Source of the DNA: Pirellulales bacterium
GTDB taxonomy: Bacteria > Planctomycetota > Planctomycetia > Pirellulales > Thermoguttaceae
Direction: 5' to 3'
Assembly: GCA_016935315.1 (NCBI GenBank)
Contig: JAFGRD010000141.1
Coordinates: 12,616 to 76,615 of the forward strand
Length of the DNA: 64,000 bases
Shown: positions 46,517 through 51,283 of the stretch, piece by piece
Layout of the letters: each line of letters opens with the position of its first letter
Numbering within the stretch: the stretch's first letter is position 1
Made by a program: the position numbers and the translations under genes
The notes under the pieces: model-generated
The model's database searches: none
What the model saw: the letters and a program-made list of their open reading frames with translations, nothing else
Told to the model about the DNA's origin: nothing

Positions 46517-48160
46517 CTACGGCTGTTGCTTGATGGCAATCAAGTGACTTCGCGTGGCGATGTAGAGCACGTCGTCGACCACCACGCCGGCACTGTAGAT
46601 CGAATCGCCCACGCTGTTCTCGGCCAGCAGCTTCATTTGGGGCGAGAGCTCGAAGACCGCCACGTCGCCGTCCTCGTCGCCGATGTAGACCTTCCCGTCA
46701 ACGACCAGCGGCGAGCCCCACATGGTCGCCAGCATGTCATAGGTCCAGTGGACCTTGCCGGTCCTGGCGTCCAGACAGTGGAACAACCCGGCCAGGTCGG
46801 CGATCACCAGCAAGTTGTCCCGGATTGCCGCCATGCCCAACGTGCGGTGCATCGTCTCCTCGAAATCAAACCGGCCGTCGCCGTTGGCGTCGTGGCCCGT
46901 GTAGTGCCAGATGGCCGCCGATTTGGGGTTCGGCCGGACTACGTCGCCGGCCTCCTTGTCGGCCGCCAGAATCCGCCGCGGCGGGATCGGCTTGCCATCT
47001 TCGTCAAAGACGAGCTCCGGGCTGACGTCGCCCCGCTTGGTGGGGTCGATGCACCAAAGGTGCCCTTGCCCTTCGCCGTGCTCGGGATCCTGACCGGTGG
47101 CGATGTACACCTTGCCCTCGCAGACCACCGGCGTGGCGATCAGGTTGCTCCGGTCGCCCGCTCCGGCTTCCCTCCACTTCGACTCCTTGGGATTGCAGTC
47201 GAACTTCCAGAGCAGTTCCGGCTTGCCGGTGTCGGTTCGCTCGGCGCGGAAGCTGTAGAGCCAGCCGTCGCCGCCGGGGAAAATCGCCTGGGGTACGTCG
47301 CCGAGGACGGCAAACGCCGGCGAGCCCCACTGCCCGTGCAAGAGGTTGCGGCCCGGCGAGTTGTCGGCCCAAACCAGCTCGCCGGTCTTCTTGTCCAGCG
47401 CGATAAAGCTGGGGGCGTCCGGGGCCGGGATCCTCTTGTGCGACTCGTCTACGCCGTTGGACGTATTGACCAGCAGCAGGTCGCCCGCCGCCGTGACCGA
47501 GCAACTGGCCATGTTGTGTTGCACGCTGCCGAGCTGCCTCATCATGTCGAACAGCCAGACGACATCGGCCTCGTTGTGGGCGTTGTTCGGTTCGGAGGTG
47601 TACGGCCCGTCGTTCTCGCCGTCGTAGAACCCGTCGGCGTCCAGACAGGCCACCTCGCCGCGGTTGGTCACCACCCAGAGCCGCTCGTCCTCGACCACCG
47701 GGGAACAGCAGATACCCTGGTCGGGCCAATCGACCGCACGCCCGGCCTCGAGCTTCTCGCGGGAAAGCTGCCAACCGAACCGCCCGTCGCGCTGGCGGAA
47801 ACAGAGCAGACAGCCCAGATCAACGTCGCTGGGATATCGCGGCAGGTATCCGGCACCGTTGTTGGTAGCGCAATAAACGCGGCCGCCGGCGATCACGGGG
47901 CTGCCGTAGCTCTGCGAGCCGAGCTGGGCGACCCACAGAATGTTCTTCGCCCCTTCGGGCAGCCATTTCCCGGTCCGGTAGTCGAAATCGCCGACATTCC
48001 ACTCCACCGGAATGTCCTTTCCGTCGGGCGTGTTGTTGCGTGCGGGTGATCCGCCCCATTGGGGCCAGTCGGCGGCTCGCCCCAAACAGGTACAACCGAG
48101 CAAAACCGTCAACAACAGGGCGCGAACCATCCACTCGGATCGGGGAGCAATACGTTTCAT
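46517..48160 (-). CDS. PQQ-repeat beta-propeller protein (BamB/PQQ-enzyme-repeat-like), secreted.
   Basis: Signal MKRIAPRSEWMVRALLLTVLLGCTCLGRAADWPQWGG. Repeated ...G.VY.....G.L.A.DA.TG...W blades. Confidence 0.7.
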   Translation of the reverse strand: MKRIAPRSEWMVRALLLTVLLGCTCLGRAADWPQWGGSPARNNTPDGKDIPVEWNVGDFDYRTGKWLPEGAKNILWVAQLGSQSYGSPVIAGGRVYCATNNGAGYLPRYPSDVDLGCLLCFRQRDGRFGWQLSREKLEAGRAVDWPDQGICCSPVVEDERLWVVTNRGEVACLDADGFYDGENDGPYTSEPNNAHNEADVVWLFDMMRQLGSVQHNMASCSVTAAGDLLLVNTSNGVDESHKRIPAPDAPSFIALDKKTGELVWADNSPGRNLLHGQWGSPAFAVLGDVPQAIFPGGDGWLYSFRAERTDTGKPELLWKFDCNPKESKWREAGAGDRSNLIATPVVCEGKVYIATGQDPEHGEGQGHLWCIDPTKRGDVSPELVFDEDGKPIPPRRILAADKEAGDVVRPNPKSAAIWHYTGHDANGDGRFDFEETMHRTLGMAAIRDNLLVIADLAGLFHCLDARTGKVHWTYDMLATMWGSPLVVDGKVYIGDEDGDVAVFELSPQMKLLAENSVGDSIYSAGVVVDDVLYIATRSHLIAIKQQP

Positions 48161-48215
48161 TATGTCTCGTTCCTGGGTCGTCTTGTTCTGGAGGTAGAAA
48201 GCCAACGGCGGGCTG

Positions 48216-48581
48216 CTACTGGTGCACGATTACTTCGTCCTGCGGGTCGAACTTCGGCAGGACGACAATCAGCACGGTCATGCGACCGACGGCACGGTGC
48301 CGAACGCCGGGGGGAATGTAGATGCACGTGCCGGGGCGAATCGGCACCAACTCGTCGTCGAGTTGCATCTTGGCCTCCGGCGTGCACTGAAGCACATAGT
48401 ACGTCTCGCTAAGCCGCCGGTGGTAGTGCAATTGGGCGTCGGTGCTGATTTCGGTCCGATGGATCGTTCCCGGAAACTCCGCCACGTCGGCCAGCGCCCG
48501 CCGGGCGGTGCCGCAAGGGCAGGAAACGCCGGGGAGCCGGTCAAAGTCGACGATCCGATAGCGTCGGGGGCCGCAGTCCAT
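48216..48581 (-). CDS. Cupin-domain protein.
   Basis: ...GTIHRTEISTDAQLHYHRRLSETYYVLQCTPEAKMQLDDELVPIRPGTCIYIPPGVRHRA..., a two-His cupin motif. Confidence 0.6.
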   Translation of the reverse strand: MDCGPRRYRIVDFDRLPGVSCPCGTARRALADVAEFPGTIHRTEISTDAQLHYHRRLSETYYVLQCTPEAKMQLDDELVPIRPGTCIYIPPGVRHRAVGRMTVLIVVLPKFDPQDEVIVHQ

Positions 48582-49202
48582 CCGGGAGGTCCTTGAGGCG
48601 AGTATGCACGTCCGGCCATCTTAACAGATTGTGCCGCCGGTGGCCACAACGGGCCACTTGGACAAGGTAGGGATCGCCGGTAGGTTCCGTGGGTGCAGCC
48701 ATGGGCTGTTAACCTTGGCAGGGTCTGCCGATTACTGCAACCTACACGGCCTCAAGCAGGCTGCGGGACCGCCGGATAATCGGCAAACCTTCGCTGCCTT
48801 ACGCGCGCGCAAATGTTTGCGCATCAAGAGCGGTAAACCTTTTGCTGAAAATGGTTTCCGTACACTCAAGCGCCCTTCCCGGGCCGACCGATATCGTATG
48901 CTGACCCTTAGCGAATACCGCGTGCCTCGGTGGCACGCTCCCTAGGGCGCGTCAGGTAACCGGATCGGCATTAATCGAGTCAAGGAATGGCTCGACGGTC
49001 CTGGCGCAGTACACCGTGCGAACTGCGGGCACCGACCCACCCTGCCCGCCCGCAGCCAAAGACCCCGCCTTGGCCGGTTCTTGCCCATGGGAGAACCCGC
49101 GGGCGCCGCGCCCTGACAACGCGTTGATCGGGCGTTCGGGAATCTGGCTGCGGCAGCGAGAGTCGCGTTGACCGCAGTTGATTGTAAAGGAGTTGTTGCT
49201 CA

Positions 49203-50012
49203 ATGAAAGGGAAGACCATTTTTGGGGCGCTCCTGGTGAGCGTCGCCCTATGCAGCCAGGGGTTCGGTTTCGAGCTTCTGGACCGGATGCTAGGGCTGAA
49301 CTGCGGTGGCTGCGGCAGTTGTGCTACCTGCTGCGAGCCCGCATGCTGCGAGGCGCCGAAGTGCTGCGCGCCGGAACCCGCTTGCTGCGAAGAGCCTGCT
49401 TGCTGCGAGCCCTCGTGTTGCGATCCGTGCTGCAAGCCGAAGTGCGACCTGTTCGGCGGACTTAAGGGACTGCTCGCCTGCAAGAGTTGCTGCGATCCGT
49501 GCTGCCAACCGAGTTGTTGCGAGCAACCCACGTGCTGTGCAGAGCCTGCTTGCTGCGAGGAACCGGCTTGCTGTGAGAAGCCGGCCTGCTGCGACCCGTG
49601 CTGCAAGCCGAAGCTCAGGGACCTGCTGGGTATCTGCAAGCCGAAATGCTGCCAGCCCACGTGCTGTGCAGAGCCGGCTTGCTGCGAGGAACCGGCTTGC
49701 TGTGAGAAGCCGGCCTGCTGCGACCCGTGCTGCAAGCCGAAGTGCAACCTGCTGGGGCTGCTCGACGGCCTGTTCTGCTGCAAGAAGAAGTGCTGCCAGC
49801 CCGCTTGCTGTGAACCGGCCTGCTGCGAGGCGGCATGCACCTCGTGCAGCGGCTGCGGCGGCGGTACGGTTGAGCAAGCCGCGCCTGCGGCGGCCCCCGC
49901 GGCCGGCGAAGAGGCCCCCGTGCCCGATCCCCCGGCTCCGCCCGATCAGTCGGCTTCGGTGAGGCCCAGCCGCAGCATCCTGCAGGCTAGCCGCATCATC
50001 GTCCGGCGCTAA
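49203..50012 (+). CDS. Secreted ultra-cysteine-rich repeat protein (about 70 Cys; CCxPxCC / CC[EKQD]P[AST]CC repeats; keratin-associated-protein-like).
   Basis: Signal [20 protein letters not shown]. Then ...[39 protein letters not shown]... repeated three times. C-terminal Ala/Pro-rich tail. An AGGAG Shine-Dalgarno precedes the ATG. An internal 120-bp near-perfect tandem duplication spans about 49535-49745. Confidence 0.7.
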
Positions 50013-50233
50013 ACCCCGCCGGCATTGTGGAAACGCAAGACGGGCCTGTCCATCCTCATGGGACGGACAGGCCCGTTGTCTTTTCTTGCCTGTGGCTTTT
50101 CTCGCGTCCGGTGTCGGCCCCTGGACAAATCGGCCGTCATCCGGCATCATCACGAGTTCAGGGATTCGCAATGGGACGAGTTCTCCCCTCGTTGCCGTTG
50201 CCATCTCCACCCCAAACGCGAGACGCCCCTCCC

Positions 50234-51283
50234 ATGACCGCCCCGCCCCCGCCGTGGCATGACGGCCCGCTGATGAAGGCCACCCGCCGCGAGCCGGCCG
50301 ATCGCGTGCCGATCTGGCTGATGCGCCAGGCCGGCCGCTACCTGGCCGAGTATCGAGAACTCCGCCGGCAGACCGGCTTCCTCGAGCTGTGCAAGAACCC
50401 GGACCTCTGTGCCGAGGTGATGCTGACGACCGTCGAGCGATTGGGGGTCGACGCGGCGATCATCTTCTCCGATCTGCTGTTGATCCTGGAGCCGCTGGGG
50501 CTCGATCTGGAATACACCCCGGGCGGAGGCCCCGTGTTGCACAACCCCGTTTGCGAGCCGCGCGACGTCGACCGGCTCGGCGAATTGGAGAATATCGAGC
50601 CGTTGGACTACGTGGTGCAAACGGTCCGCAAGACCCGGGCGGGCCTGGCGCCGGAGTTGCCGGTGATCGGTTTTGCCGGCGCCCCGTTCACCTTGGCCGC
50701 CTATGCCGTCGAGGGAGGCTCCAGCCGCCACTACCGGCGGGTCAAGTCGCTGATGTATCGCGACGCCGGCGCGTGGCACGCGTTGATGGGGCGGCTGTGC
50801 AGGGCGATTACCCTTTATCTAAACGCCCAGATCGACGCGGGTGCCCAGGTCGTGCAGCTTTTCGACAGTTGGGTCGGCTGCCTGGGCGTGGATGACTATC
50901 GCCGCTACGTGCTGCCGCATACGCGGTCGATCTTTGAGGGCCTCCGGTCCGGCGTGCCGGCGATCCACTTCGGCACCGGCAACCCGGCCCTGCTGCCGCT
51001 GCAGCGCGAGGCGGGCGGCGATGTGATCGGCGTCGATTGGCGCATTCGGCTCGACGACGCCTGGGACGCGATTGGCCCCGACCGGGCGATTCAAGGAAAC
51101 CTCGACCCGGTCGTGCTGCTGGGCCAGCCGGCCGAGATCCGTCGCCGGGCCAAGGAGCTTCTCGACCAGGCGGCCGGACGGCCTGGCCACATCTTTAACC
51201 TCGGCCACGGCGTGCTGCCGCAGACACCAGTCGAAAACGTCATTGCCCTGATCGACGCCGTGCACGAAATGGGAAGTCGCTAG
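50234..51283 (+). CDS. hemE: Uroporphyrinogen decarboxylase.
   Basis: ...[21 protein letters not shown]...; full URO-D fold. Confidence 0.93.

Follow-up and report, generated by a model that had tools for sequence, protein, structure and literature searches.

Cell-wall preparations of planctomycetes are described in PMC8567305 and PMC12673574, which cite König 1984, Liesack 1986, and Hieu 2008, as proteinaceous and as containing cysteine (Cys)-rich proteins, and the YTV proteins of Rhodopirellula, Gemmata, and Tuwongella are documented protein components of such preparations (PMC12673574, PMC8567305). The YTV proteins are Cys-rich, secreted, and restricted to planctomycetes. In Chlamydia, which shares with the planctomycetes an origin in the Planctomycetes-Verrucomicrobia-Chlamydiae (PVC) superphylum, a disulfide-cross-linked network of Cys-rich envelope proteins confers rigidity. 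Mammalian keratin-associated proteins (KAPs; the Keratin_B2 and Keratin_B2_2 families) are built of CC-x-P-x pentapeptide-like repeats, have a very high content of Cys and Pro, and are presumed to act through disulfide cross-linking, and dense Cys thiols are also found in the metallothioneins SmtA and BmtA and in the exported protein Csp1. Here we describe a gene for a Cys-rich protein, located at 49203-50012 (+) in a 64,000-nucleotide (nt) stretch of contig JAFGRD010000141.1 from a Pirellulales bacterium (GenBank assembly GCA_016935315.1), together with the RNA leader that precedes it. The whole stretch is referred to below as the window, and coordinates are positions within it. The family and its leader have no described relatives, and both belong to known kinds, the protein among envelope or thiol proteins and the RNA among structured leaders. 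Literature searches on Cys-rich envelope proteins of planctomycetes and on bacterial Keratin_B2_2 proteins turned up the YTV proteins alone and no account of the present family.

The protein encoded in the window resembles the KAPs in its repeats and its Cys and Pro content, and one of its cultured relatives is called a "keratin-like protein" by NCBI. It differs from them in being a bacterial, Sec-exported protein with amphipathic spacers and a conserved C-terminal motif, and the Keratin_B2_2 profile (PF13885) matched it only at E = 1.3, with 9.4 bits against a cutoff of 27; precomputed matches to PF13885 or PF01500 are found on only a few homologues. Because the family profile failed and the CC-x-P-x repeat is not conserved, the resemblance to KAPs pointed out in a preliminary description of this DNA holds for composition, which appears convergent, and does not extend to homology. 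The window protein also has no detectable homology to the YTV proteins; it is much smaller and predicted to be disordered, its family comes mainly from uncultured Pirellulales and Thermoguttaceae, and, since it contains no Tyr, it can have no YTV motif, which the family consensus likewise lacks. The chlamydial proteins OmcA and OmcB offer an analogy of mechanism only: no match to Chlam_OMP3 or Chlam_OMP6 was found at E ≤ 10, sizes and repeat structures are unlike, and OmcA is a lipoprotein, whereas the window protein has no lipobox. As for the thiol proteins, there was no hit to SmtA/BmtA or Csp1 families in Pfam or NCBIfam at E ≤ 10 and no relative in the PDB. The window protein has no His and no linked metal-homeostasis genes, and Csp1 is a four-helix bundle, whereas no folded domain is predicted here. 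The earlier statement that this is not a typical bacterial metallothionein is therefore upheld, no known class having been matched in Pfam or NCBIfam.

The leader invites comparison with riboswitches, with leaders bound by CsrA such as that of Bacillus subtilis hag, and with the 5' untranslated regions (UTRs) of ompA and S-layer genes. Like these, it lies in cis, is strand specific, and has covarying helices and invariant unpaired nucleotides; it also has a GGA-containing hairpin loop in addition to the GGA in the Shine-Dalgarno sequence, and it abuts the ribosome-binding site. It differs from known leaders in matching none of 4,227 Rfam families and, at approximately 300 to 420 nt, in being unusually large.

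The Cys-rich gene and its coding status

The open reading frame (ORF) at 49203-50012 (+) comprises 269 codons plus a stop, as first reported, and the protein sequence then quoted after a signal-peptide-like N terminus matches. The product has 61 Cys residues (22.7%) and not the 70 or so originally claimed, with 25 CC dipeptides, 34 Pro residues, and no His, Trp, or Tyr, and the gene has a third-position G+C content of 78.5%. In a scan of one genome per species, 245 genomes were found to hold a relative, and the best 80 of these 245, all of them metagenome-assembled genomes (MAGs), supplied the 80 loci on which the locus counts below are based. The + frame is uninterrupted in all 80 loci, and the ATG is in register in every one. 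When close relatives were compared, codon positions 3, 1, and 2 carried differences in the ratio 242:68:56, and over the first 33 codons entropy is highest at position 3, lower at position 1, and lowest at position 2 in both clades. This predominance of third-position substitutions indicates that the + frame is coding, and, on this comparative evidence, 49203-50012 is a real gene under purifying selection. Together with the composition and the 266 homologues described below, the substitution bias agrees with the original view of an extremely Cys-rich repeat protein that is genuinely encoded and probably secreted.

Two long antisense ORFs, 48980-49840 (-) and 49290-50210 (-), of 286 and 306 amino acids (aa), overlap the Cys-rich gene; both are a by-product of composition, since no stop codon occurs in the complements of TGC, GAG, and CCG. 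Antisense genes over family loci are sometimes called in public annotation (loci L204 and L205; e.g., L204 5707-6453).

A conserved structured RNA leader upstream of the Cys-rich gene

Our alignments indicate that the region upstream of the Cys-rich gene is a previously undescribed, strongly conserved structured RNA leader, a 5' UTR extending over 48772-49202 (+), with its 5' boundary set where conservation begins. The leader is more conserved than the protein: about 330 nt (48771-49101) are 70 to 83% identical to loci whose proteins are only 40 to 50% identical, and a 35-nt leader core is present in 80/80 loci. This conservation came to light through the public gene calls for some homologues (P0105, P0078, and P0020), which are over-extended at the N terminus by 100 to 180 aa and read through the leader; the extensions resembled translations of the sequence upstream of the gene in the window, and a nucleotide comparison was therefore made. 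Alignments A2 to A4 show a conserved block that starts at about 48772, then a variable insert that is missing in about 16 loci, and then an almost invariant initiation region, GUAAAGGAG-N10-AUG; the leader measures 300 to 420 nt across loci. In the window this translation initiation region (49186-49205, +; almost invariant in A2) consists of the Shine-Dalgarno sequence AAAGGAG (49186-49192), a 10-nt spacer, and the ATG (49203-49205). The region between 48582 and 49202 had been described as a lower-GC intergenic region; its G+C content is indeed marginally lower (61.8%, versus 64.9% for the window), but it is not plain intergenic DNA, since it holds the structured leader.

The core of the leader, represented by covariance model R1 (48890-49021, +), contains four helices on the + strand, Pa (48905-08/48944-47), Pb (48920-26/48932-38), Pc (48949-56/49000-07), and Pd (48975-81/48989-95), the last of which carries the loop AAGGAAU (48982-88). 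In 61 sequences, 92% of the cells of Pa to Pd pair, compared with at most 44.5% when the partners were slid, compensatory changes occur in 13 of the 26 pairs, and 0/500 shuffles attained the observed values. The model-based alignment A5 (79 sequences) gave 90.9% pairing with 66 compensatory cells, and at a single Pc position the combinations U-G, U-A, G-C, A-U, C-G, and G-U are all seen. G-U pairs are frequent in the leader helices, which is compatible with the + strand only. A long-range helix, P5, formed by 49021-49028 with 49172-49179 (+), encloses the variable insert, its 3' strand stopping 6 nt short of the Shine-Dalgarno sequence. In clade 1, P5 covaries (GAACUG/CAGUUC, GAACCG/CGGUUC, and GAAUUG/CAAUUC), and in clade 2 a different complementary pair, GUGGAUCAC/GUGAUCCAC, and variants of it occupy the same position; in short-form loci the insert that P5 encloses is reduced to about 25 nt. 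Overall, the leader folds into at least five helices, with compensatory changes in five. Its minimum free energy is lower than that of its own shuffles (z = -2.39). RNAalifold on the full leader gave only three helices; in the 5' domain (approximately 48785-48890), a hairpin (AAACC…GGUUU or AAAGC…GCUUU) is seen in some loci and not in the GGAAAU subgroup.

Having a covarying structure, a fixed strand and position, and an association with one gene family, the leader qualifies as a cis-regulatory structured 5' leader. The 451-nt leader searched alone gave no match in Rfam 15 at E ≤ 10, nor is there any gathering-level match to an Rfam family, or any tRNA gene, in the window (1-64000); the scores recorded were at chance level, such as 16 bits for livK against a cutoff of 65 and 19 for Scr3202 against 52. 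There is accordingly no Rfam signal for a T-box or for the known metal riboswitches. With respect to a riboswitch platform, the leader alignments contain no covarying terminator/antiterminator and no covarying alternative that sequesters the Shine-Dalgarno sequence. Attenuation by a leader peptide was also considered and rejected, the AUG in the Pd loop not being conserved (GUG, CUG, UUG, or none in other loci) and lying too near the GGA. Two further candidate pairings, of GAGCRG in the 5' domain with UUGCUC in the initiation region and of CUCAAGGG with CCCUU, showed no covariation on inspection of A2 and A3.

The palindrome GCGCAAATGTTTGCGC, first noted at about 48818 as a possible operator, is present at 48807-48822 (+) and lies inside the conserved leader block, where the consensus reads GCGGAAATCTTTGCGC. 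The dyad is perfect in only 1 of 43 aligned loci, the window itself, and most loci have two to five arm mismatches, conservation being confined to the 3' half. The palindrome is thus not a conserved inverted-repeat operator.

Three further sequence features of the leader were observed. The Pd loop together with its 3' strand (AAGGAAUGGCUCGAC, 48982-48996) resembles the initiation region AAGGAGUUGUUGCUCAAUG (49187-49205), which reads GUGGCUCGAUG in clade 2. This likeness could mean that the Pd region mimics the ribosome-binding site or serves as a decoy for it, or that one RNA-binding factor has two sites here; an alternative pairing between the Pd region and the initiation region has no supporting covariation. 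At the 5' edge of the conserved block, most loci have a TAnAAY hexamer resembling a -10 box (A3 columns 4 to 9; GATAAT at 48775-48780 in the window). No convincing -35 box was seen for it, and a sigma-70 scan did not flag the hexamer. Finally, most long-form leaders contain a hairpin, GGUUCU-UGCCCAUGGG-AGAACC, within the variable insert (49074-49097; A2 columns 575 to 600), and short forms lack this insert. As no run of U follows the hairpin, it is not a terminator.

Linkage of the leader to the Cys-rich gene

R1 has a single match at E < 0.01 in the 64-kb window, at 48890-49021 (+), with 123 bits and E = 5e-35. Across the homologue loci, which span 856 kb, exactly one copy is found on the strand of the gene in 78/80, and the exceptions (L057 and L077) have truncated upstream sequence; the leader is always upstream of the gene and on the same strand (79/79 loci). 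The reverse test, a metagenome scan with the Pd hairpin sequence alone, returned 120 loci, of which 105 carry the extended motif. In 94 of these 105 a family gene lies 60 to 219 nt downstream on the same strand; of the others, seven have no downstream sequence, two have the gene on inspection (L119 and L148), and two are weak and probably chance matches. Every evaluable instance of the motif therefore precedes a family gene (96/96).

Downstream of the gene is an intrinsic terminator (50040-50087, +), with a 16-bp G+C-rich stem (50040-50076) followed by the T-rich tail TGTCTTTTCTT. The gene is monocistronic, and leader, ORF, and terminator together constitute a self-contained cassette, conserved in a group of Planctomycetota of the Pirellulales type. 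Only the 11 to 16 closest loci show the order PQQ_2 propeller, cupin, leader, gene, hemE; neighbors in clade 2 are unrelated, and no conserved functional gene partner was found among the flanking genes across clades. Because flanking genes vary between clades while leader and gene stay together, the conserved unit is leader plus gene.

In the window, a signal-peptide-bearing PQQ_2 (BamB-like) beta-propeller gene (46517-48581, -) diverges from the leader. A divergent PQQ_2 gene is also seen in several more distant loci (L081 5866-7512; L082 2686-7348), often with a small Cupin_2 gene in between, an arrangement that could reflect inherited synteny or a functional link. On the other side, the hemE ORF, taken mechanically, starts at a GTG at 50027, and its URO-D domain starts at an ATG at 50234; a sigma-70-like site, TGGACA-17-CATCAT (50122-50150), lies after the terminator of the Cys-rich gene, so hemE appears to own a promoter.

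Protein architecture and distribution of the family

The protein begins with a predicted Sec signal peptide (49203-49262, +), read from the sequence, with probable cleavage before FGFELL; its pattern, MK.K…ALCSQG|FG, is conserved in all 80 genomic homologues and in every family member. As judged by eye, it has the features used here to recognize a type I signal peptide, namely, a basic n-region (MKGK), a hydrophobic h-region (10 to 15 residues), small residues at -3 and -1, and no twin arginine. A lipobox was considered and rejected, because the sequence leading to Cys17, V-A-L-C, has Leu at -1 and because several homologues have another residue in place of Cys17. The Cys-rich region (49302-49847, +; aa 34 to 215) consists of four C(C)-x2-4-C(C) blocks, rather than the approximately three repeats first counted, with amphipathic motifs between them. 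It is followed by an Ala/Pro-rich linker and a conserved C-terminal linear motif (49848-50009, +), defined from the alignment consensus and from AlphaFold2 (AF2) confidence, so that both the hydrophobic spacers and the Ala/Pro-rich tail of the original account are found. In this C-terminal part, P241, P244, and D248 are conserved columns of the consensus APLPxAPxADPSAS…IYQASRSxVRN.

AF2, run with a 20-sequence alignment, gave no fold (predicted local distance difference test [pLDDT] 50; predicted template modeling score 0.19). Secondary structure was placed only at the signal peptide (a helix at residues 2 to 18) and at residues 24 to 29, pLDDT was below 50 throughout aa 34 to 215, and outside the signal peptide confidence climbed only at the C-terminal motif (pLDDT 84, residues 241 to 250). 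The mature protein is thus predicted by the model to be disordered.

Part of the Cys-rich region is an in-frame tandem duplication (49524-49742, +). Its near identity and recent origin were recognized at the outset, and only the period needs correction, from 120 to 129 bp, with cores of 90 nt (49524-49613 and 49653-49742). Tandem Repeats Finder and a repeat finder agree on these cores, which are the same at 88/90 positions, far beyond chance; both differences are synonymous third-position changes, so the 30-aa units at aa 108 to 137 and 151 to 180 are identical. The extra block is missing from the nearest relative, L013, which indicates that the duplication is recent.

A search of 5.8 billion protein clusters returned 266 homologue matches (best E = 2e-58); the matches that bear a name are called "hypothetical protein," and where a source is named it is a MAG of Planctomycetota, Pirellulales, or Thermoguttaceae. 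When 1.84 billion representatives were searched with a profile and without filters, 413 proteins passed E ≤ 1e-3, of which 227 reached ≤ 1e-10 and 46 reached ≤ 1e-30, and among the best 150 of the 413 no length suggested a fused extra domain. Searches with Pfam, NCBIfam, and PDB profiles gave no significant match for the Cys-rich protein. The family therefore appears, from these searches, to be small, phylogenetically narrow, and unannotated, and to be found almost only in Pirellulales and Thermoguttaceae MAGs. A second search, from a clade-3 member, added two relatives from cultured strains, the 179-aa "keratin-like protein" of Botrimarina mediterranea (L204 6001-6540, CP036349.1) and a 160-aa hypothetical protein of Blastopirellula sp. 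J2-11 (L206 6001-6483, CP097384.1). Both have the signal peptide, GLFxGLKGxF spacers, and CCxEPxCC repeats and are without the Ala/Pro tail and the C-terminal motif. The R1 leader was missing upstream of both even with search filters off, the upstream gaps being 400 to 440 nt.

Conservation within the family was assessed with alignment A1 and a census of 81 to 148 members. The signal peptide and an 11-residue motif directly after it are conserved family-wide, as are amphipathic DLFxGLKGLF-type spacers, one 10-residue spacer being identical 56 times across the family, and total length is held near 263 aa. Apart from the signal peptide, the best-conserved parts are these spacers and the C-terminal motif, which reads APLPxAPxADPSAS…IYQASRSxVRN in clade 1 and DASA…VAVSRTVxxK in clade 2. 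Dense, regularly spaced Cys residues are conserved, but neither the CC doublet nor Pro is, and many members have single Cys residues and C-x3-C spacing; the residues between are variable, EPA being commonest and C-GAGNG-C occurring in clade 2. Repeat number does vary among homologues, as had been proposed for checking, with 1 to 34 CC doublets and 30 to 85 Cys residues per mature protein. The number of Cys residues is even in 77 members and odd in 70 (p = 0.62), showing no bias.

A possible role in the envelope and its alternatives

Our tentative preference, held at somewhat less than even confidence, is that the Cys-rich protein is an abundant, posttranscriptionally controlled, disulfide-cross-linked envelope protein. 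Structural cross-linking and metal or redox buffering, the two roles suggested in the preliminary description, are still the leading candidates. On the preferred reading, the leader would regulate a highly expressed gene at the level of translation, mRNA stability, or both. By looping out the variable insert, P5 would keep the core, with its AAGGAAU loop, beside the Shine-Dalgarno sequence at any insert length, and the GGA or Shine-Dalgarno-like element in that loop points to a coupling of the two by some factor or fold. The product would be exported by Sec, the signal peptide removed, and the exported chain, intrinsically disordered, of about 250 aa and with 30 to 85 Cys residues, would be kept in the periplasm or envelope. 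There the DLFxGLKGLF-type motifs and the C-terminal peptide may serve as docking sites for the membrane or for partner proteins, and its dense thiols would oxidize to a heterogeneous, largely intermolecular disulfide network. The protein would thus serve as a cross-linking matrix protein of the protein-rich planctomycetal envelope, working like the KAPs or the chlamydial Cys-rich proteins without being homologous to them.

Several observations point in this direction. The mRNAs of abundant envelope proteins, ompA and S-layer transcripts among them, typically have a long conserved leader, a strong Shine-Dalgarno sequence, and a terminator of their own; the Cys-rich gene, a lone gene, has all three, which suggests an abundant envelope protein. 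Cross-linking is suggested by the free drift of Cys number and pattern alongside conservation of the docking-like motifs, and the absence of a preference for even Cys numbers fits disulfides between molecules and speaks against a defined disulfide fold within one. An envelope role is also consistent with the proteinaceous, Cys-rich nature of planctomycetal walls as described in PMC8567305 and PMC12673574. Weighing against this reading, cultured model planctomycetes yielded no family member, and the two cultured relatives represent a shorter subfamily without tail or leader. The published Cys-rich proteins of the cell wall are YTV-domain proteins, a class to which the window protein, lacking the motif, does not belong. 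For several host genomes the source is an anoxic or sulfidic site (e.g., the Zodletone MAGs), where periplasmic disulfide formation is uncertain. Moreover, the missing Cys parity bias and the drift in pattern fit a thiolate metal binder equally well.

That last point leads to the main rival, a periplasmic high-capacity thiol buffer whose reduced Cys residues bind Cu(I), Zn, Cd, or Hg or scavenge oxidants or sulfide, with the leader acting as a metal- or redox-responsive riboswitch or regulator site; we regard this as doubtful, though a serious candidate. The repeat region is about 25% Cys, in CC, C-x2-C, and C-x3-C spacings, aromatic residues are almost absent, with no His, Trp, or Tyr in the window protein, and Cys number is free of a parity constraint, all of which suit a thiol buffer. 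So does the predicted disorder of the ligand-free protein, since apo-metallothioneins are disordered, and so do the anoxic habitats of some hosts; the highly conserved leader, with its many invariant unpaired nucleotides, resembles a ligand-sensing RNA. However, no metallothionein family and no Rfam metal riboswitch was matched, the flanks examined contain no recurrent metal-resistance, efflux, or MerR/ArsR/CsoR-type neighbors, spacers rich in Glu and Pro would be unusual in a metallothionein, and it is not obvious what the amphipathic spacers and docking-like C-terminal motif would do in a soluble metal sponge.

It is very unlikely that the gene encodes a precursor of secreted or modified Cys-rich peptides, a multicore precursor of the bufferin type or one resembling ribosomally synthesized and posttranslationally modified peptides (RiPPs), with the hydrophobic motifs as recognition or cleavage sites between cores. 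Short conserved motifs do alternate with variable Cys-rich blocks whose number varies by duplication, and some known copper-binding RiPP precursors have Sec signal peptides. But in no clade are genes for a modifying enzyme, protease, or transporter conserved beside the gene, the flanks differing and only the leader staying linked; the lack of modifying genes makes this explanation unlikely, and the conserved C-terminal tail would be left unexplained. Finally, the worry voiced in the preliminary description, that GC-rich TGC repeats produce the Cys-rich frame as an artifact, is effectively excluded on comparative grounds, as is a true feature that is noncoding or antisense. In 78% of loci the antisense frame in register with the gene has no stop over 90% or more of its length, and gene callers have at times annotated antisense genes that overlap it (L204/L205). 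Against this, 100% of loci have an open + frame, substitutions show third-position bias, the Shine-Dalgarno sequence, ATG, signal peptide, and stop are all kept, the variable sense position 3 (242, versus 68 and 56) is position 1 of the in-register antisense frame, and leader and terminator are both oriented with the + strand.

Conclusions

The proposal that the Cys-rich protein is a cross-linked envelope protein can be taken further, to the idea that the leader represents a large regulatory RNA of a new class, functioning as a riboswitch or bound by an RNA-binding protein and dedicated to one gene family, and that the gene encodes the long-sought cystine- and proline-rich matrix protein of the Pirellulales envelope, acting through disulfide cross-links. 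We consider this bolder version improbable. If it is true, a bacterial, convergent counterpart of the KAPs would exist under riboregulation.

To our knowledge, very few RNA motifs have been described in Planctomycetota, and the leader adds a large, well-supported structured RNA to this phylum. Since it is tied to one gene family in all loci examined, testing its function should be straightforward. The protein is a case of convergence in which a secreted bacterial protein reads like a matrix protein of mammalian hair, and it illustrates that very recent in-frame duplication enlarges repeat proteins of this Cys-rich kind. Accounts of planctomycetal envelopes have long noted an unusual richness in protein and cystine, and the proteins responsible are only partly known; the Cys-rich family is a strong, testable candidate for an envelope protein in a large uncultured part of the Pirellulales.

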